Source: a virus. From it: DNA of 64,000 bases. The DNA lies in IMG/VR virus record IMGVR_UViG_3300015024_000001, positions 1 through 64,000 of that record. One strand, 5' to 3'. The position numbers and the translations under genes are program-made. The notes beneath the pieces were generated by a model that was not told the DNA's origin, did not search any database, and was given only the letters and a program-made list of their open reading frames with translations. Below are positions 1 through 55,674 of the stretch, piece after piece. The first letter of the stretch is position 1, and every line of letters starts with the position of its first letter.

Positions 1-405
1 TATGGGAGCAAAAACTAATCAAAAGTTTGTCCAAATTCCTACCGCTAAGCTCAAAGAACGAATTAAACAACTGTGCGAACTCTATGGAATTGAGTTCATA
101 GAAACTGAAGAAAGTTATACTTCCAAGGCTTCGTTTGTGGATAGAGACTACCTACCTACTATTGGTGCAAAACCCGATGGGTGGAAAGAATCTGGCAGAC
201 GGGTTAAGCGTGGTTTGTATCGCACTGGTTCGCTTAATTGGCACATCAATGCAGACTGTAATGGTGCTGCAAATATACTCAGAAAAGTAGCGACAATGTT
301 AGGGCTTTGCCTTAATGGAGTTGGTAGAGGGACTTTGGCAGCCCCTCAGAGAATTAAACTTTAATTACTCTGGAATCTCAGCGCTGAAGCGACTGAGAGT
401 GTCAA
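1..405 (+). mobile_element. 3' part of an IS200/IS605-family (TnpB) element
   Basis: tnpB C-terminus followed by subterminal hairpin ctcagcgctgaagcgactgag and terminal GTGTCAA (TCAA at 402-405), the same right-end pattern as the element ending at 24436. Confidence 0.85.
2..364 (+). CDS. tnpB: TnpB RNA-guided endonuclease, C-terminal fragment (truncated by window edge)
   Basis: EESYTSKAS, GRRVKRGLY and INADCNGAANILRK motifs typical of cyanobacterial TnpB. Confidence 0.9.
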   Translation: MGAKTNQKFVQIPTAKLKERIKQLCELYGIEFIETEESYTSKASFVDRDYLPTIGAKPDGWKESGRRVKRGLYRTGSLNWHINADCNGAANILRKVATMLGLCLNGVGRGTLAAPQRIKL

Positions 406-20933: not shown

Positions 20934-21071
20934 CGAACTAATAGCTTTAGCTACCAAGTAATCGTCCTGCTGAAACAAGACCTCATAGATTTACACCAGA
21001 ATTACTAAGCTATGAGGAGTTCTTAAAAAAGTGATATACTAACTGTATAGTAATATACAAAAGGTTATCTA

Positions 21072-21575
21072 GTGGCTATTGTACAAGTATTAGGTCTCGA
21101 TGGAGGTTCGAGAAATTTGGGAGTATCTATCATAGACTACAACACGGAAATACAAACACTAAATTGTCTTGATGCAACTCATTTCGTTAGTAAAGGTGTT
21201 AGTATACCTGAGCAGTTAGATAGTGTAGCTCAATTCCTAAAACAGTACATAGACACTTATTCACCATCTATTTTTTCGTATGAAGCAATGGTTTTCAAAG
21301 GGAAGTTTAGTGCTGGTAATGGGGTCGGGATACAGAATGCAATGGGAGTTATACGACTTATAGCTTACAAAAAAGGACTGCAAGAATTTTCTTACAGTCC
21401 TAAACATATTAAACTTATAACTACAGGTAAATCAACAGCAGATAAACAAGATATAATTAATAAAGTATCAGCCCTTTTTCCTTCTACGGTCTTTAAGATT
21501 TCACATAATCATGCTGCTGATGCAGTTGCAATTGGACTTACATATCTTGTAGACCAGCATAAAATAAAACTATGA
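21072..21575 (+). CDS. ruvC: Holliday junction resolvase RuvC
   Basis: LGLDGG, YE, YSPKHIK...GKSTADK, HAADAVAIG. Confidence 0.9.
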   Translation: MAIVQVLGLDGGSRNLGVSIIDYNTEIQTLNCLDATHFVSKGVSIPEQLDSVAQFLKQYIDTYSPSIFSYEAMVFKGKFSAGNGVGIQNAMGVIRLIAYKKGLQEFSYSPKHIKLITTGKSTADKQDIINKVSALFPSTVFKISHNHAADAVAIGLTYLVDQHKIKL

Positions 21576-22156
21576 AAAACAGAATAAAGTGGTACTTACA
21601 AGAAACAGAAGAAGATTCTGACATACCTTGTCATACAGATGTTGGTAGGTCTAGACCAGCAAAAGTGAGTAGGTCATACAATAACATACCTCCACGTTTT
21701 ATGATGACAACTATTACACCAGAGATTATAGATATATTAGAAGCTCAACCTATATCAGAGTACATAGAAAAGAAGTTTGATGCTTTTGTGTTAGCATTAC
21801 AATCTATTGCAAATACCAAACACACAAGAGAGTTGACTAATGAACGAGAATATTTTATAAAGTTAACACCTAATAAGATACAGAATTGGTGCCAGATAAC
21901 AAAACAAGAGTTATTAGACTTATCTATATTAGAACTTGTAGATAAATACACAGCGATTAAGTACAGAAAGAACAAGAATATGGTATGTAACTATGACAAC
22001 TCTACACTACACTTGTCTACTACTGATGCAGAGAAGTTTGTGGATATAATGCTTAATCTTCCTGAACCATCTAATAACTTAAAAAACTATTGCAGAATCA
22101 GCAAGATGTTCCTGCTGAGTTTCAACAAATATTGCATGATAATTTTTGGGAGATAG
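21572..22156 (+). CDS. hypothetical protein
   Basis: 194-aa ORF coupled to ruvC. Confidence 0.65.
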   Translation: MKNRIKWYLQETEEDSDIPCHTDVGRSRPAKVSRSYNNIPPRFMMTTITPEIIDILEAQPISEYIEKKFDAFVLALQSIANTKHTRELTNEREYFIKLTPNKIQNWCQITKQELLDLSILELVDKYTAIKYRKNKNMVCNYDNSTLHLSTTDAEKFVDIMLNLPEPSNNLKNYCRISKMFLLSFNKYCMIIFGR

Positions 22157-22159
22157 TCA

Positions 22160-22444
22160 GTGATAAAAATGCATGATAAAGCAGACAGTAAATTAGGAGA
22201 TTCTTTTTATAACGCTAAAGATAATAAGTGGTATTATTTTGACGGTATTAATTGGGTACTAGGACTTTATTTCGTATATGAAAATTATAAAGGCACTGTA
22301 GCAGAACGTTGTGTTATACCACTAAGTATCTTTTTTGGTGTCACAGAATATCATAAACAATCTGCATATATGATGCATACATGGGACATAGAAAAGAAAG
22401 CTTACAGAGACTTTGCTTTAAATAATATTCAGAGATTTTTATGA
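22160..22444 (+). CDS. small WYL-domain protein
   Basis: YENYKG..AERCVIP...FG.TEYH...WDIEKKAYRDFAL..I. Confidence 0.75.
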   Translation: MIKMHDKADSKLGDSFYNAKDNKWYYFDGINWVLGLYFVYENYKGTVAERCVIPLSIFFGVTEYHKQSAYMMHTWDIEKKAYRDFALNNIQRFL

Positions 22445-23096
22445 GTAAACGTATAAAGTATACTACATAAGTGAACTTACTTAGAACTTATATGACAATC
22501 AAATACAGAAAAGAATAAAACTATAGTATGCTACACTATAAAGACTTTATAAAATAAACTATGTATTTACTTCTACTTGACCTTATTTCAAAACGTAAAT
22601 ATCCTAAACGTTATAGTTTAGATGGTAATTACCTAACTTATAGAATCGGTAATCATGTCAACTTAAACTATGACACACGTAAAATTGAAACTGAAACTGA
22701 TTCTGATTCTGATGAATACACTGATTTATTACATTTAATTGAGTGGTCTTGTGATATGGCGGCAAGAGAATCAGGTTATCCTGAACTTCTAACTATAGAA
22801 GAACTTGAAGCACTTGAATCTTCAGAATATTTTGCTACAAAAGATGGCATTGTGATATGTGTTAATCGTGAACTTTTACAGAAACAAATAACAAAGTTAG
22901 ATGTAAACTGTACTATTGAACCCAAAGGAAGACCTGTAGTTGTACACTTCCCAACTTTTGATATTACTATTCCTGAAGGTACATCTCACAAACATATTAA
23001 AACTCTTCTACTAGAAGCTGTTAGTAGATAAATATACAACCACCAATATTTTCTTCTATGGTCTTTACATCCACACTTATGAGTAAACGTATAAAG
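22439..23096 (+). repeat. 20-bp direct repeat (22439-22458 and 23077-23096) flanking one CDS
   Basis: ttatgagtaaacgtataaag present twice. Confidence 0.85.
22561..23031 (+). CDS. hypothetical protein
   Basis: 156-aa ORF between the direct repeats. Confidence 0.65.
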   Translation: MYLLLLDLISKRKYPKRYSLDGNYLTYRIGNHVNLNYDTRKIETETDSDSDEYTDLLHLIEWSCDMAARESGYPELLTIEELEALESSEYFATKDGIVICVNRELLQKQITKLDVNCTIEPKGRPVVVHFPTFDITIPEGTSHKHIKTLLLEAVSR

Positions 23097-23123
23097 CAAA
23101 CTATATGGATTGATGATTCTTAT

Positions 23124-24436
23124 CGGAAAAACGGGTTTAAAACCCCGTGCTTCTAGCACGGCTTTATATCAATAAGCTACATCTTATGTTAGAATATACT
23201 ACATAAGATTAGATAAATCCATGTTAGTTCTCGAAGCAAAACTAAAAGGCAAAGCAGAGCAGTACAACCTCATTGATGAGGCTATCCGTACCGCTCTGTT
23301 TTGTCGCAACAAGGCTTTGAGGTACTGGATAGATAATCGTGACACTGGCAGATATGACCTCAATAAGTTCATGGCTGTGCTTGCCAAGGATTTTGATTTT
23401 GCAAATAAATTAAACTCTCAAGCAAGACAATCAAGTGCTGAAAGAGCATGGTCTGGTATCGCTAGATTTTTTGACAACTGCAAAAAGAAAGTATCAGGTA
23501 AGAAGGGATATCCAAGATTTAAGAAACGTGGTCAATCGGTTGAATACAAACAAACTGGATGGAAGCTTTCTGAAGACAGGAAATACCTAACTTTAACTGA
23601 TGGTTTTAAGATTGGCAAAGTCAAATTAGTCGGTAGCCGTGACCTTAACTTCTATCAGATTGAGCAAATTAAACGAGTCAGGCTGGTTCGCCGTGCTGAC
23701 GGATATTACGCTCAGTTCTGTGTCGATGTTGACCGCAGGGAAGATTTAGAGCCATCTAAATCTACGATTGGTTTAGATGTTGGATTGAATCATTTCTATA
23801 CCGATAGCAATGGTCAAACAGTCAAAAATCCTAGATTCCTTAGAAAGTCAGAACGTCAACTCAAAAAGTTGCAACGTAAAGTTTCTAAGCGTAAAAAGGG
23901 ATCAGTTAATCGCAGAAAAGCAATTAAGTGGTTAGCAAGAAAGCATTTGCAAGTAAGTAGGCAGCGTAAAGACTTTGCGGTAAAAACTGCAAGGTGCGTA
24001 GTTCGGTCTAACGACCTGATTGCCTATGAAGATTTGCAAGTACGGAATATGGTCAAGAATCATAAATTAGCCAAGTCAATATCTGATGCAAGCTGGTCGA
24101 TGTTTCGTGATTGGGTTGAGTATTTTGGCAAAGTGTTTGGTAAGGTCACGATTGCAGTACCACCACAATATACAAGTCAGAATTGCTCAACTTGCGGGAC
24201 TTTAATCAAGAAATCGCTGAGTGAGCGCACTCATCAATGCAGTCATTGCGGTAGGGTTTTAGACCGCGACCACAATGCTGCATTGAATATCTTGGCTATT
24301 GGTTTAAATAGGGTAGGGCTTACCCAAATTTCTACGCCTGTGGAGAGTTCGACCTCTGCCTTGTAGATTTAGGTCTACTTGGTAAGTTGTCTCGCCGAAT
24401 CAGGAATCCTCACGCCTTCAGGCTGAGGAGTGTCAA
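23124..24436 (+). mobile_element. IS200/IS605-family element carrying tnpB only (IS1341-like, no tnpA)
   Basis: TTAT target at 23120-23123; left-end hairpin ccgtgc-ttcta-gcacgg; right-end hairpin cctcacgccttcaggctgagg and terminal TCAA; the reconstructed empty site restores the portal stop codon. Confidence 0.9.
23221..24366 (+). CDS. tnpB: TnpB RNA-guided endonuclease, apparently intact
   Basis: RuvC triad GLDVG / AYEDL / DRDHNAA and zinc finger CSTC...CSHC. Confidence 0.95.
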   Translation: MLVLEAKLKGKAEQYNLIDEAIRTALFCRNKALRYWIDNRDTGRYDLNKFMAVLAKDFDFANKLNSQARQSSAERAWSGIARFFDNCKKKVSGKKGYPRFKKRGQSVEYKQTGWKLSEDRKYLTLTDGFKIGKVKLVGSRDLNFYQIEQIKRVRLVRRADGYYAQFCVDVDRREDLEPSKSTIGLDVGLNHFYTDSNGQTVKNPRFLRKSERQLKKLQRKVSKRKKGSVNRRKAIKWLARKHLQVSRQRKDFAVKTARCVVRSNDLIAYEDLQVRNMVKNHKLAKSISDASWSMFRDWVEYFGKVFGKVTIAVPPQYTSQNCSTCGTLIKKSLSERTHQCSHCGRVLDRDHNAALNILAIGLNRVGLTQISTPVESSTSAL

Positions 24437-24452
24437 GGATAGTTATTAGGTA
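24300..24452 (+). ncRNA. predicted TnpB omegaRNA (right-end scaffold plus flank-derived guide); 5' boundary uncertain
   Basis: Established TnpB biology; hairpins gtagatttaggtctac and the right-end stem; guide would begin at 24437 (ggatagttattagg...). Confidence 0.55.
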
Positions 24453-25926
24453 AATTTTCTAAAGTATCTTTAGGTACTGCTGTAGCTACTTGTGGATCTT
24501 GTTGTTGTAATTGATCTTGTTGTTGTTTTCCTTGATCTACTTGTGTTTTAGCATTAGAGATAGCACTTTGACTATTAAGCCATTTTGTCATTAATTCAAG
24601 ATTTTTTAACTTATTAGCATCTTCAAGTTCAGGTTGTGCCATAGGATTTAATCCTAAATCTTTACGTATTTGATTTTGTATCTCAGTGTCATCAGCAGAG
24701 AATAGACCTGATGCAATACATGATAATACTGTTGATACACGATTATTACGATCTACAGCAGACTCATCAGAGATAAATTCAAAACTACCATATTCTTTTG
24801 ATTCTCCAAACTCCCAAACAAGTAAAGGTTTAACTACTTTATTTATCATTTCTTCACGCATACCTTGTACAACGCTTTCCACACCTGCATCAAACATAGA
24901 TTTATGATTCTGTGAGAGTCCACTATTACCAAATGTACCACTAGTTCCTTCATTAAATAGAGATTGTGGAACACCAAAAGATAGTGATAAATTTTTCTCT
25001 ATAAGATTAAAAGCATAACTCCAGAACTGTTCACCTGTCTGTGTTTGTAATACTTGTAGATTAGTTTCATTATCAGTTACAATAAGATCACTATTCTCAA
25101 GTTCTTTAAGTTGCATATATAATGCTTTTTGCTTTGTTATAGTAATAGCCTTACCTGTCTGATCTACACGTAGTTTGTCATCAGCATCATATAACTGCAT
25201 ACGTTGTGTAGAGTTTGTCTGTCCCCATAATACACCAGTGGCATTATTCTTAGCTGCAATACCAAATTCGGTAGATATTAATTGACGTAATTTATACCAG
25301 TTTAATGCTTTTTCACAATCAGCAGATCCCCATATGAGATCTGTATTGAAAGGGACGGTATCTGTATTAGTTATATGTAGACACTTTCTATAATCTATGT
25401 ATATTGTATTATTATGTCTATCTCTATAACCAAACTCAATTACTCTACCATTTGTACCTCTCACTGAAATATTACGAATATCAAGTACATTAATACTTTT
25501 CAACATCCATTTATTACGAAATCCAGGCATCATAGAAGAGAAATTAACTTCAGCCACAGAATAACCAAAAGTCATAGCACTAGCTAATCGTGCTAATATA
25601 GTACGAAAACTACCTTCCATATTATTTAGATTCTTACGTACAAACTCTTGATAGTCTTTATTATTATGTGTATACTGACCAAAAGTTATCTGTGCGCGTA
25701 ATACTTTTATAGCAGCACAAAAACCAACAAGTGGATCTTTCTCAATCATCTTAATCCACTCCCCATATACACGACGCTTAGGACTATATATTTCTGTAAT
25801 ATATCGTCCTGTAAGTGCTTGGACTGATGTAGTTAGACGAGCATTAGTTGGTATGTACAGGGAAGGTTGAAAATCTTCATAAGAAAGATTTTCGTTGCGG
25901 TTAATAACTTGGGGAAATAATGACAT
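24433..25926 (-). CDS. portal protein (DUF935/Mu gp29-like)
   Basis: 497 aa; MIEKDPLV, AMTFGYSVAEVNF, G.NSGLSQNH, INKVVKPLLVWEFG, IRKDLGL. Confidence 0.8.
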   Translation of the reverse strand: MSLFPQVINRNENLSYEDFQPSLYIPTNARLTTSVQALTGRYITEIYSPKRRVYGEWIKMIEKDPLVGFCAAIKVLRAQITFGQYTHNNKDYQEFVRKNLNNMEGSFRTILARLASAMTFGYSVAEVNFSSMMPGFRNKWMLKSINVLDIRNISVRGTNGRVIEFGYRDRHNNTIYIDYRKCLHITNTDTVPFNTDLIWGSADCEKALNWYKLRQLISTEFGIAAKNNATGVLWGQTNSTQRMQLYDADDKLRVDQTGKAITITKQKALYMQLKELENSDLIVTDNETNLQVLQTQTGEQFWSYAFNLIEKNLSLSFGVPQSLFNEGTSGTFGNSGLSQNHKSMFDAGVESVVQGMREEMINKVVKPLLVWEFGESKEYGSFEFISDESAVDRNNRVSTVLSCIASGLFSADDTEIQNQIRKDLGLNPMAQPELEDANKLKNLELMTKWLNSQSAISNAKTQVDQGKQQQDQLQQQDPQVATAVPKDTLENLPNNYP

Positions 25927-25962
25927 AATTTTTATATATATAATACTATAATATCATATTTT

Positions 25963-27036
25963 ATGCATATAGCTTGGCTTGGAAAAGGAATGCCTGACTC
26001 TGGTAATATCACTTATTCGCGTGAGACAACCAATAGACTTTGCGCCTTTGGTGTGAAAGTTAGTTTCTTAAAACTGATAATTAGTGATGATCTCCAACCA
26101 TTTGATGAGTCAGATTACAAAGCCGATATTTATATTGTGCCACTCAACGCAGACGCTAATTTTATTGAAAAGTTGTTACGCGAACTAAAGCCTGACATTG
26201 TTCATGTTTCGCTAGCTGCTTCGTGCATTGACTTTGAAATCCCAAAAATATGCAAAAGATTGGGTATTCCGATTATTGGGATATTTCATCAGCCGTTTAA
26301 TATTGTATTTAATTATCAAATAGCTCAGGATAATTTCACTTGCTACCAGATCTACGCACCAACATTGTGTGAATACGATCACATAATTGCTATTAGCGAA
26401 TCTCAAAAACAATTACTCCACAGGGTAGGTGTTGACGATGCAAAAATAAGCATCATCCCTTATGGTATGGATACCGACTTTTACTGTCCTAGAGCATCAA
26501 AAAACCACAGTGACTTAATCTTTTTGTATCAAGGGCGTATAGCTAAGGAGAAGAACTTAGAAGCTCTACTAGACGCTTGGGTTGACTGCAATATGCCTCT
26601 AACTAGCAAGCTACTTTTAATGGGTACAGGCGATTTACTTGATGCCTTTAGCGCTAAGTACACAGTGAAAAATATTGAATGGTTAGGTCACATAGCAGAT
26701 AAAAAACATCGGTTAAGAATATTACAAAATGCTGATTTTTTTATTAGTCCATCACTTGCCGATGCAATGTCTCTATCATTACTAGAAGCGATGTCTTGTG
26801 GTATTTACTGTGTTGCAACAGATATAGGAGCGCACAAAGAGCTTTTAGACAGTTTTGGTACGCTGGTATCACCTATTACCACAAAGCAAGATTTGTGTGA
26901 GTTACTACCAATTCTTAGTAGATGTAAAGTTGATGAGATAAGGAATGTTGTTATCAATAAGTACAATATAGCAGACAGTCTAGATAAACTTTTACGATTA
27001 TATAAAAGCTGCAACATCAATTGTAGTAAATGCTGA
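25963..27036 (+). CDS. glycosyltransferase family 4, cyanobacterial type
   Basis: MHIAWLGK...GNITYSRE, GRIAKEKN, SLSLLEAMSCG, ATDIG. Confidence 0.9.
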   Translation: MHIAWLGKGMPDSGNITYSRETTNRLCAFGVKVSFLKLIISDDLQPFDESDYKADIYIVPLNADANFIEKLLRELKPDIVHVSLAASCIDFEIPKICKRLGIPIIGIFHQPFNIVFNYQIAQDNFTCYQIYAPTLCEYDHIIAISESQKQLLHRVGVDDAKISIIPYGMDTDFYCPRASKNHSDLIFLYQGRIAKEKNLEALLDAWVDCNMPLTSKLLLMGTGDLLDAFSAKYTVKNIEWLGHIADKKHRLRILQNADFFISPSLADAMSLSLLEAMSCGIYCVATDIGAHKELLDSFGTLVSPITTKQDLCELLPILSRCKVDEIRNVVINKYNIADSLDKLLRLYKSCNINCSKC

Positions 27037-54408: not shown

Positions 54409-55674
54409 TCAAGCCAAAACCTCATGAGCTTTATTATAATAAGCTATGCGGTCGTCTATACCGTTGAGTCCTCCGTTGACAACTCTTGTGACCATATAGA
54501 TGTCAGCACCTTCCTTATTAATATAATCAGACAGTGTGTTTTTATTCCAAAACCAACCAGCGCTAGTGAAGGGATAGTTATCAGCTACATAATAACAACC
54601 TTGTTTAATAACTTCAGGATCGTTTATATCTTTTGAGAAACTCGTATAATTTCCACGTCCTGTTAATTGTATAAAACCTGAACCTTTAAATTTACAACCA
54701 TCACCTTTTTGTGTGTTACCTAAATCTTCACGACCTTCATAATCATCACCTGAAGCTATTTCCTTAGTATAAATAAGACCTGCAGATTCAGCCCCAACTT
54801 GCCCTAAGAACTGGCAAACATCTTCATGGGTGTTTATACCAAAAGTCTGCAAACACCTCTTAAAATCGATATACAAGGCATCTGATAGCGTATTATTATA
54901 TATATCTTCTAGTTGTGCTTTTGTTGGTATAAAATCCGTAGAAAAAGAAATTAATTGATCATCTTTATATAGAGAAACATGTTCAGCAAAAGCATATAAA
55001 ATACCAAGTATACTATTACAATTTAATTTTATATGTTTTTGAGATGGTGCTTCATAGCTAGTAATGGATAGTGATTGACCAGAAGCTATTGAAATTTTTT
55101 CATTAGAACTTAGTAAAGAAGAATCAATAGGTTTGGTTTTAAACCATGTCTTTTGATTAGCTTTTACGTACAACCCTGTAGTGTTTTGTTCTTGGCTACT
55201 ACTTGCCGAAGATTTTCCCAGCAAATTAGTTGGGTTAATAATATCATCAGCTATTTCAGCAATTGTATTAATAGTTGGATCTTTTGTTATTGAATTAACA
55301 ATAGATTCAGCAGGTTTTTCTACAACTTGTGTTACCGTTGTAATAATATTAGCGGGTTGATCTTGTACAGCTACAATAGGTACAACAGGTACTACAGGAA
55401 TTTCTACAATAGCAGGTTGCATAACAGCTACTTTTACAACATCTGTCTTATCACGTCCAATAATACCTTTAGGTGTATAAATATTAGGCTCTACTAATTT
55501 TAAAGTAGCAGCAACTCCAGTAGCAATAACAGATGAAATCAAGTGTTCTATATCTTTACGACTTAAATTACCATCAATTGCAGAATCAATAGCTGGTTGA
55601 CAACTAGTTATATAGAATAAACCGATAACTGTCCAAAAATGTTTAGTAGTAAATAAATTACGTTGTTCTAACAT
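54409..55674 (-). CDS. endolysin, glycoside hydrolase family 19, with long N-terminal extension
   Basis: FLGQVGAES, YEGREDLGN, FKGSGFIQLTGRGNY, SAGWFW, VNGGLNGIDDR. Confidence 0.92.
   Translation of the reverse strand: MLEQRNLFTTKHFWTVIGLFYITSCQPAIDSAIDGNLSRKDIEHLISSVIATGVAATLKLVEPNIYTPKGIIGRDKTDVVKVAVMQPAIVEIPVVPVVPIVAVQDQPANIITTVTQVVEKPAESIVNSITKDPTINTIAEIADDIINPTNLLGKSSASSSQEQNTTGLYVKANQKTWFKTKPIDSSLLSSNEKISIASGQSLSITSYEAPSQKHIKLNCNSILGILYAFAEHVSLYKDDQLISFSTDFIPTKAQLEDIYNNTLSDALYIDFKRCLQTFGINTHEDVCQFLGQVGAESAGLIYTKEIASGDDYEGREDLGNTQKGDGCKFKGSGFIQLTGRGNYTSFSKDINDPEVIKQGCYYVADNYPFTSAGWFWNKNTLSDYINKEGADIYMVTRVVNGGLNGIDDRIAYYNKAHEVLA

Follow-up and report, generated by a model that had tools for sequence, protein, structure and literature searches.

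How can a mobile element come to rest on the stop codon of an essential phage gene, and what might the RNA-guided nuclease that it encodes do from there? The question is raised by IMG/VR virus record IMGVR_UViG_3300015024_000001, a linear sequence of 131,991 bp rated 95 % complete, the first 64 kb of which (positions 1 to 64,000, hereafter the window) were analysed. Within the window, an element of the IS200/IS605 group that encodes the nuclease TnpB supplies the stop codon of the gene for the portal protein. The explanation favoured here, with somewhat more confidence than doubt, is that the element was mobilized in trans onto the portal stop, that its TnpB may cut element-free copies of the site under the direction of an RNA guide and that repair of the resulting breaks may spread the element. 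The features on which the argument depends are the following.

23120-23123, plus strand: TTAT target-adjacent motif (TAM), whose reverse complement, ATAA, would have held the original TAA stop of the portal gene.
23124-23220, plus strand: left end of the element, with subterminal hairpins at 23134-23144 and 23145-23161 and no space for a transposase gene.
23221-24366, plus strand: tnpB, 381 aa, an apparently intact RNA-guided RuvC nuclease, as judged from Pfam, a structure alignment and a match in Pseudanabaena.
24311-24436, plus strand: omegaRNA scaffold and right end, with covarying helices, ending ...GAGTGTCAA at 24436.
24437-24452, plus strand: predicted guide/target segment, i.e. the first 16 nt of the right flank, antisense to the last portal codons.
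24433-25926, minus strand: portal gene, whose TGA stop (24433-24435) and the third base of whose last Pro codon (24436) belong to the element.

Identity and origin of the portal-stop element

The portal gene is an open reading frame (ORF) for 497 aa with the C-terminus ...PNNYP. It matches Pfam Portal_Mu (2e-12) and PHROG 113 'portal protein' (8e-10), as well as the annotated portal of Pseudanabaena phage Pam2 (34 % identity, 8e-70) and the portal of Pseudanabaena phage PA-SR01 (32 % identity). Because the nearest portals come from Pseudanabaena phages and the TnpB is up to 94 % identical in Pseudanabaena genomes, the phage probably infects Pseudanabaena. Public runs containing the record's sequence are labelled as glacier or ice metagenomes.

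For the placement of the boundaries, 80 genomic and four viral loci encoding TnpB relatives were retrieved, and the element ends were compared by blastn against 88 loci. In most copies, similarity sets in at 23120 and breaks off at 24436. The left junction reads gattcTTAT followed by cggaaaaacggg, with TTAT at 23120-23123; among the other copies, TTAT stands directly before the left end in 20 of 27 rows and, as read from printed extrapolated alignment rows, after a shift of 1-2 nt in two more, while the remaining five, all distant copies of 66-72 % aa identity, are preceded by TTAC. At the right end, GTCAA is terminal in 36 of 37 rows, with unrelated flanks beyond. One Pseudanabaena copy matches all 1,317 nt at 89 %, diverged high-depth copies in runs X4, X5 and X6 break exactly at 23120 and 24436, and approximately 36 independent copies in Pseudanabaena and other cyanobacteria agree on both ends. 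These copies have unrelated DNA on both sides, with neither terminal inverted repeats nor target-site duplications and with hairpins at both ends. The DNA of the left end folds at -8.5 kcal/mol (z -2.7), and the stem of its hairpin shows compensatory changes between copies; on the plus strand, this hairpin is also terminator-like in score. A promoter scan of the DNA before tnpB gave no sigma-70-like site at the scan threshold.

Among 471 candidate stretches in genome contigs, 408 were confirmed as TnpB relatives, the best of them 94-86 % identical and mostly from Pseudanabaena, and the GC content of the element (0.41) lies above that of the genome (0.35). The flanks of the viral contigs L085-L087, which encode TnpB relatives, had no match in the phage genome. 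On the comparison of copies, window positions 23124-24436 are established as a 1,313-bp, TnpB-only (IS1341-type), non-autonomous member of the IS200/IS605 group, and the element as host-derived and common in Pseudanabaena and other cyanobacteria. This account of its anatomy and origin is held with high confidence; the portal-stop element is an ordinary example of an already known type of element.

A silent exchange of stop codons

At the right end, the plus strand reads ...gaggagtgTCAAggatagttattaggta..., with T24433, C24434, A24435 and A24436. The portal strand accordingly ends AAC TAT CCT TGA, in which 24433-24435, read in reverse complement, give TGA and A24436 pairs with the T of CCT, so that the final four bases of the element, TCAA, overlap the end of the portal gene. 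Joining TTAT to GGATAG... yields AAC TAT CCA TAA on the portal strand. Since the mechanism of the family is scarless, according to one report (PMC10055086), the site before insertion can be inferred to have read ...TTATGGATAG.... In the related phage locus L004, the portal ends TAT CCA TAA, which is TTAT joined to GGATA on the opposite strand. Among the other relatives, the portal ends CAA TAT CCA TAA in L003 as in L004, CCA TAT CCC TAA in L089 and CCA TAT CCT TAG in L090. The YP-stop ending is thus conserved in all four, and the present NNYP C-terminus is therefore native. A first-pass annotation of the window, made from its letters alone, had proposed each of these points, namely that the portal end is formed with the terminal TCAA of the element, that the joined flanks restore CCA TAA, that the protein is unchanged and that this supports both boundaries and the TTAT motif. 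The sequence and ORF coordinates bear out the first, recalculation together with L004 and an allele described below the second, the YP-stop of all relative lineages the third, and the 88-locus comparison (36/37 GTCAA; 22/27 TTAT) the last.

The silence of the exchange is deterministic: read in reverse complement, TTAT becomes ATAA and TCAA becomes TTGA, so that any antisense NNA-TAA lying on the motif turns into NNT-TGA, which leaves the amino acid unchanged where the codon belongs to a four-fold box, as that of Pro does. This rule is simple and general, and it accounts for how such elements can reside at no cost on the stop codon of an essential gene. The phage genome holds 2,612 TTAT sites; 34 of its 152 ORFs of at least 100 aa end in NNA-TAA, and the swap would be synonymous in 16 of those 34. 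The same exchange of stops is seen at host genes, namely those for an FAD-binding monooxygenase of 417 codons (L023) and an MsrB/SelR protein of 161 codons (L025), and a 140-codon ORF with no Pfam match likewise ends at the right-end TGA in L038. No paper on stop-codon swapping by IS605 ends was found in the literature covered, which lay outside subscription journals and supplements.

The TnpB nuclease and its predicted guide

The TnpB exceeds the curated Pfam cut-offs for both OrfB_IS605 (4e-29) and the zinc-ribbon domain Cas12f1-like_TNB (1.9e-21), aligns with the ISDra2 TnpB structures 8bf8/8exa (1.4e-38) and matches a Pseudanabaena copy over its full length at 94 %. Its residues D186, E270 and D350 align with D191, E278 and D361 of the ISDra2 chain, and both CxxC pairs are retained (residues counted by hand). 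The three ISDra2 residues are the catalytic residues of the RuvC domain. A nuclease-dead repressor of the TldR kind was considered and ruled out, as the Asp/Glu/Asp residues are present. With the full length, the three acidic residues and both CxxC pairs kept, the nuclease looks intact, as had been claimed.

When the final 230 nt of 36 copies are aligned, a consensus RNA structure of 44 pairs emerges, 23 of which show compensatory changes. Paired cells amount to 96.5 % vs 33-41 % in slid controls, the covariation score is 0.364 vs 0.04-0.07, and none of 500 shuffles reached the observed values of pairing and covariation. The covarying helices (24311-24325, 24337-24404 and 24407-24429) overlap the tnpB stop at 24364-24366 and extend to the right end, a layout that is expected of an omegaRNA; the last hairpin probably doubles as the DNA hairpin for a transposase. 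In Rfam, the putative omegaRNA region had no match at gathering scores. The position of the guide follows the family rule in PMC10055086, and its length of 16 nt was set by analogy. The first-pass annotation had read the guide as aimed at the portal gene, and 24437-24452, antisense to the last portal codons, does follow the end of the element directly. Within the 132-kb genome, this segment is unique at 0-1 mismatches, and the sole site with two mismatches, at 54572, is preceded by GAAG rather than TTAT. The premise on which that annotation drew, that TnpB takes the right flank as its guide and cuts element-free donor joints beside the motif, is in print and established in bacteria (Meers et al., PMC10055086).

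An element-free allele in a natural population

If the nuclease were active, its natural target would be a near-identical genome in which TTAT directly precedes 24437. Such a genome was sought as a simple empty site by a portal search of viral and metagenome contigs, which returned only relatives of 69-77 % identity. In run X1, however, where the phage flanks are present at a depth of about 8, a 744-nt contig matches 24437-24918 with one mismatch over 482 nt, and the letters immediately preceding 24437 are TTAT. CCA TAA, and with it the complete motif-plus-target, is therefore present in a near-identical phage. On the other side of that TTAT, the contig consists of 245 nt of other DNA, ending in the motif. 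A second contig matches 22719-23123 with no mismatches over 405 nt and, after its TTAT, runs 200 nt into other DNA. A third, considered below, has a different arrangement, and the bin depths at both junctions in X1 are fully explained by these three contigs. Taken together, the contigs imply that the main X1 allele consists of the left flank, TTAT, another segment, TTAT and the portal gene, and that it is not a simple empty site. Both of its breakpoints coincide with the element ends. The population thus contains an element-free allele with the recognition site and with other DNA in the place of the element. The 30-letter ends of that DNA were absent from the phage's own genome (at up to three mismatches), from viral contigs and from the 101 loci compared.

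The search for an empty-site allele proposed in the first-pass annotation hence succeeded in part: on the portal side, X1 has TTAT joined to GGATAG, but this is not the simple empty site CTTATGGATAG, since other DNA of 245 nt or more precedes the motif. The same result leaves the annotation's description of the site as cost-free unsupported, because other DNA beyond both TTATs in X1 means that the element-bearing genome also lacks a segment that is present in the X1 allele. For the origin of the X1 allele, the best guess is an insertion at each of the two TTATs with subsequent recombination between the resulting copies; a cassette may instead have been replaced during repair after a TnpB cut. 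As to its content, the guess is that the other segment holds a homing nuclease gene.

The structure of this allele also bears on a different use of the nuclease, in which TnpB would cut the portal 3′ end of element-free competitors and so depress their yield, the element itself being copied rarely if at all. The X1 allele shares no sequence immediately left of the target, which would hinder conversion, and the scheme resembles a published case of intron-endonuclease interference between co-infecting phages that is cited in a review (PMC13565253). Nonetheless, the two alleles match again further out, with 0 mismatches over 405 nt to one side and 1 over 482 nt to the other, so that gap repair would still be possible, and a role purely as a weapon of competition is considered improbable.

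The portal 3′ end in related phages

In every relative, the DNA that separates the portal gene from a conserved 94-aa gene varies. Directly after the portal, L004, L003 and L089 have a GIY-YIG homing-type nuclease (Pfam 2.6e-10, 3.8e-11; PHROG 314), and in L090 an HNH nuclease is convergent with the portal and overlaps its stop (PHROG 10822, 1.7e-41; Pfam HNH below the cut-off). The positions of these post-portal nucleases in the relatives are as follows.

L004, 5628-6761: GIY-YIG homing-type nuclease.
L089, 2983-3666: GIY-YIG homing-type nuclease.
L090, 3036-3791: HNH nuclease, convergent with the portal.

The TnpB element lies in the same place as these genes, and its position fits the niche of a homing nuclease. 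The portals of these relatives (70-77 % identical) would not themselves be targets, as the guide matches only 5 nt in L004, and L089 and L090 are without TTAT. A bolder reading would make the portal 3′ end a contested landing site for selfish nucleases of the GIY-YIG, HNH and TnpB kinds, with TnpB acting between co-infecting phages as a true RNA-guided homing element that replaces rival cassettes and with the TTAT/TCAA ends making antisense NNA-TAA stops safe harbours in gene-dense genomes. As a whole, we consider this reading rather unlikely.

A possible source of transposase within the phage

With only 97 nt between the motif and the start of tnpB, the element itself lacks tnpA. The close host copies are all TnpB-only as well, as their left ends lie approximately 100 nt before tnpB, and this subgroup is evidently mobilized in trans. 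Outside the window, at 104494-106173, the same genome carries a second, complete and autonomous IS200/IS605 element, with an intact TnpA of 133 aa on the minus strand (Y1_Tnp, 1.1e-35 over the whole profile) and a TnpB of 394 aa that is 38 % identical to that of the portal element. Its left end (104494-104539) is identical to the left end of the portal element at 44 of 46 positions, the similarity starting exactly at TTAT, and its right end is likewise similar, finishing ...GAGTGTTTCAA. The TnpA of this second element is thus plausibly able to excise and re-insert the portal element, as far as the likeness of the ends can tell. The partner at 104.5 kb was absent from the first-pass annotation, and it matters for how the element moves.

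Other IS605 material is present in the record. The second element itself sits after TTAT within the 3′ end of a 62-aa ORF, the last residues of which it alters. Close to the far end of the record, at genome positions 129429-131166, is a third TnpA/TnpB element, a partial copy of which opens the window:

1-405, plus strand: partial copy of the third IS605-type element, comprising the 3′ part of tnpB and a right end that finishes GAGTGTCAA at 405; a near-copy of 130766-131166.

On the minus strand at 131437-131532, there is an inverted, 99 % identical copy of 96 nt of the right end of the second element, with a different flank; this is a solo omegaRNA-type end with no adjoining tnpB. At approximately 90700-91600, a C-terminal remnant of tnpA on the minus strand precedes a 191-aa ORF that contains an HNH-like motif and has a GC-rich hairpin segment beyond its stop, which together look like an IS605 shell with a different nuclease.

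Proposed mechanism and its alternatives

The sequence of events that would join these findings begins with the insertion of single-stranded element DNA 3′ of a TTAT that overlapped the CCA TAA of the portal gene on the other strand, after which the gene would read CCT TGA, with the same protein and a new stop. Excision and re-insertion would be supplied by the Y1 transposase of the second element (104494-106173). The 3′ ~130 nt of the element would be transcribed to yield an omegaRNA, with the first 16-20 nt of the right flank as its guide, and TnpB with this RNA would cut any copy of the phage genome in which TTAT directly precedes GGATAGTTATTAGG..., i.e. any element-free copy. Recombinational repair from an element-bearing genome would then restore or spread the element, the repaired genome belonging either to the same phage, once excision has occurred, or to a near-identical one that co-infects the cell. 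That element-free alleles are cut under RNA guidance is, in our judgement, somewhat more probable than not. Homing is plausible, and that spread between co-infecting phages might be a real, selected behaviour is put forward more tentatively, as something we doubt more than we expect. No paper on RNA-guided homing between phages was found within the same literature coverage. With an apparently intact nuclease, a defined guide, a wild allele bearing the exact target, a partner transposase encoded elsewhere in the genome and relatives that carry classical homing nucleases at this spot, the locus would offer a natural test system for RNA-guided homing between viruses.

Several observations weigh against this explanation. 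The alternative allele in X1 is not a scarless donor joint, since other DNA lies between its TTATs (no less than 200 nt from the left one and 245 nt up to the right one); a deletion or replacement, which the simple model would not predict, must therefore belong to its history, and its conversion would require resection through unshared DNA. In the third X1 contig, the left flank of the 104.5-kb site leads into the left end and from there into 23166-23685 of the portal element; this contig is either a path of the assembly graph through the 33-nt core that the two left ends share or a real, different arrangement in that population. An intact sequence is, moreover, no guarantee of activity, as the HpyTnpB of IS608 was inactive in a published assay (PMC10055086). 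Nor did the survey suggested in the first-pass annotation reveal a clear preference for antisense stops: an ORF of at least 80 codons ends at the right-end TGA in four of 36 copies, compared with two and three of 36 in the other two frames. The share of TTAT sites at such stops is 1.3 % in the phage genome, a comparison that suggests enrichment, though it stands in only roughly for host genomes and may reflect survivorship. The stop positions are read as survivorship at harmless sites, not as a demonstrated preference.

Finally, no contig from runs X1, X4, X5 or X6 spans either element-phage junction. The phage flanks are thin or missing in X4, X5 and X6, so that the absence of junction contigs there is uninformative, and contigs can omit minor variants; the junctions consequently rest on the record alone. 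One might suppose from this that repeats were mis-joined during metagenome assembly, placing the element at the portal stop by artefact. Besides the lack of a spanning contig, the record starts and ends inside copies of insertion sequences (ISs), its last 0.8 kb is GC-richer and contains the GCGATCGC motif, and the genome has several left-end and right-end repeats. Yet the sole repeat that the portal element shares elsewhere in the genome is the 46 nt at its left end, with none at its right end, and the junctions fit the rules of the family to the base (TTAT, GTCAA and an in-frame stop that keeps YP), as random mis-joining would not. A mis-assembly is accordingly regarded as very improbable.

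A more serious competitor holds that the element is a harmless passenger, which hopped from the host chromosome during infection and persists because its site is undamaging; TnpB and its RNA would have no role in spread from phage to phage and would at most guard against loss after excision within one genome. In a genome so tightly packed, insertions that survive should lie at harmless sites; there are 2,612 TTAT sites, only 34 of the 152 ORFs of at least 100 aa end in NNA-TAA, and the antisense-stop frame is not enriched over the others. Elements of this kind are also common in cultured cyanophages (21 phage records), and the role of phage tnpB is called unknown in two reports (PMC10286775; bioRxiv 10.64898/2026.02.14.705889). 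However, TnpB, the structure of its guide RNA and the partner transposase each appear to be intact, motif and target occur together in a natural allele from X1, and homing nucleases occupy the same spot in relatives. Simple persistence of this kind is given a minor share of our expectation, and RNA-guided cutting with spread by repair continues to be the explanation that we favour.

Neighbouring features

On the left, the portal gene faces a convergent ORF.

22561-23031, plus strand: left neighbour ORF, 156 aa, convergent with the portal gene, with no Pfam or PHROG match.

A counterpart of this ORF was sought in the loci of the relatives L004 and L090, and none matched. Directly upstream of the portal gene, and transcribed divergently, is a gene for a group-1 glycosyltransferase at 25963-27036 (Pfam Glyco_trans_1_4, 2.9e-18). 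A tRNA scan of the window found none, an Rfam scan of the whole window at gathering scores returned zero families, and a megablast of 21000-27000 against phages gave no match.

Comparison with known systems

Elements of the ISDra2 type were reportedly described by Karvelis in 2021 as IS200/IS605 elements with a TnpB and an omegaRNA. The portal element is like such ISDra2/ISGst-type elements in the fold and catalytic triad of its TnpB, in a structured RNA that overlaps the tnpB 3′ end and the right end, in its subterminal hairpins, in the absence of a target duplication, in insertion 3′ of a 4-nt motif and in a guide drawn from the right flank. It is unlike them in having no tnpA of its own, in its TTAT motif, in its residence in a cyanophage of lytic type instead of a chromosome and in a right end that forms the stop of an essential gene.

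TnpB relatives occur in 21 phage records, including phages A-1(L), Ma-LMM01, MaMV phages, Nodularia phages and PA-SR01. The portal element resembles the elements of A-1(L), Nostoc phage A1, Ma-LMM01, MaMV, the Nodularia phages and PA-SR01 in being host-derived, with a TnpB of 54-68 % aa identity, although the elements of 2AV2 and Ma-LMM01 retain tnpA. The closest parallel in position is PA-SR01, where the right-end TCA is the TGA stop of a convergent gene for a hypothetical protein of 159 aa (L101, 2480-2485); unlike at the portal, the left end there is preceded by TTGAC and not TTAT, and, in our reading, the swap would shorten the gene by six codons. The portal stop was not occupied in any of six cyanophage lineages inspected. 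In the reports considered, the role of phage tnpB is called unknown, or roles in recombination are proposed (PMC10286775; bioRxiv 10.64898/2026.02.14.705889).

The niche itself is familiar from another class of genes. Free-standing homing endonuclease genes of phages include the Seg and Mob genes of T4, as well as genes of the GIY-YIG and HNH types. With these, the portal element shares its place in the genome and a proposed mode of spread, the cutting of the allele that lacks the gene and repair from the one that bears it. It would differ from them in that recognition would use an RNA guide and a 4-nt motif rather than protein and, since it retains transposon ends, in that it could also transpose.

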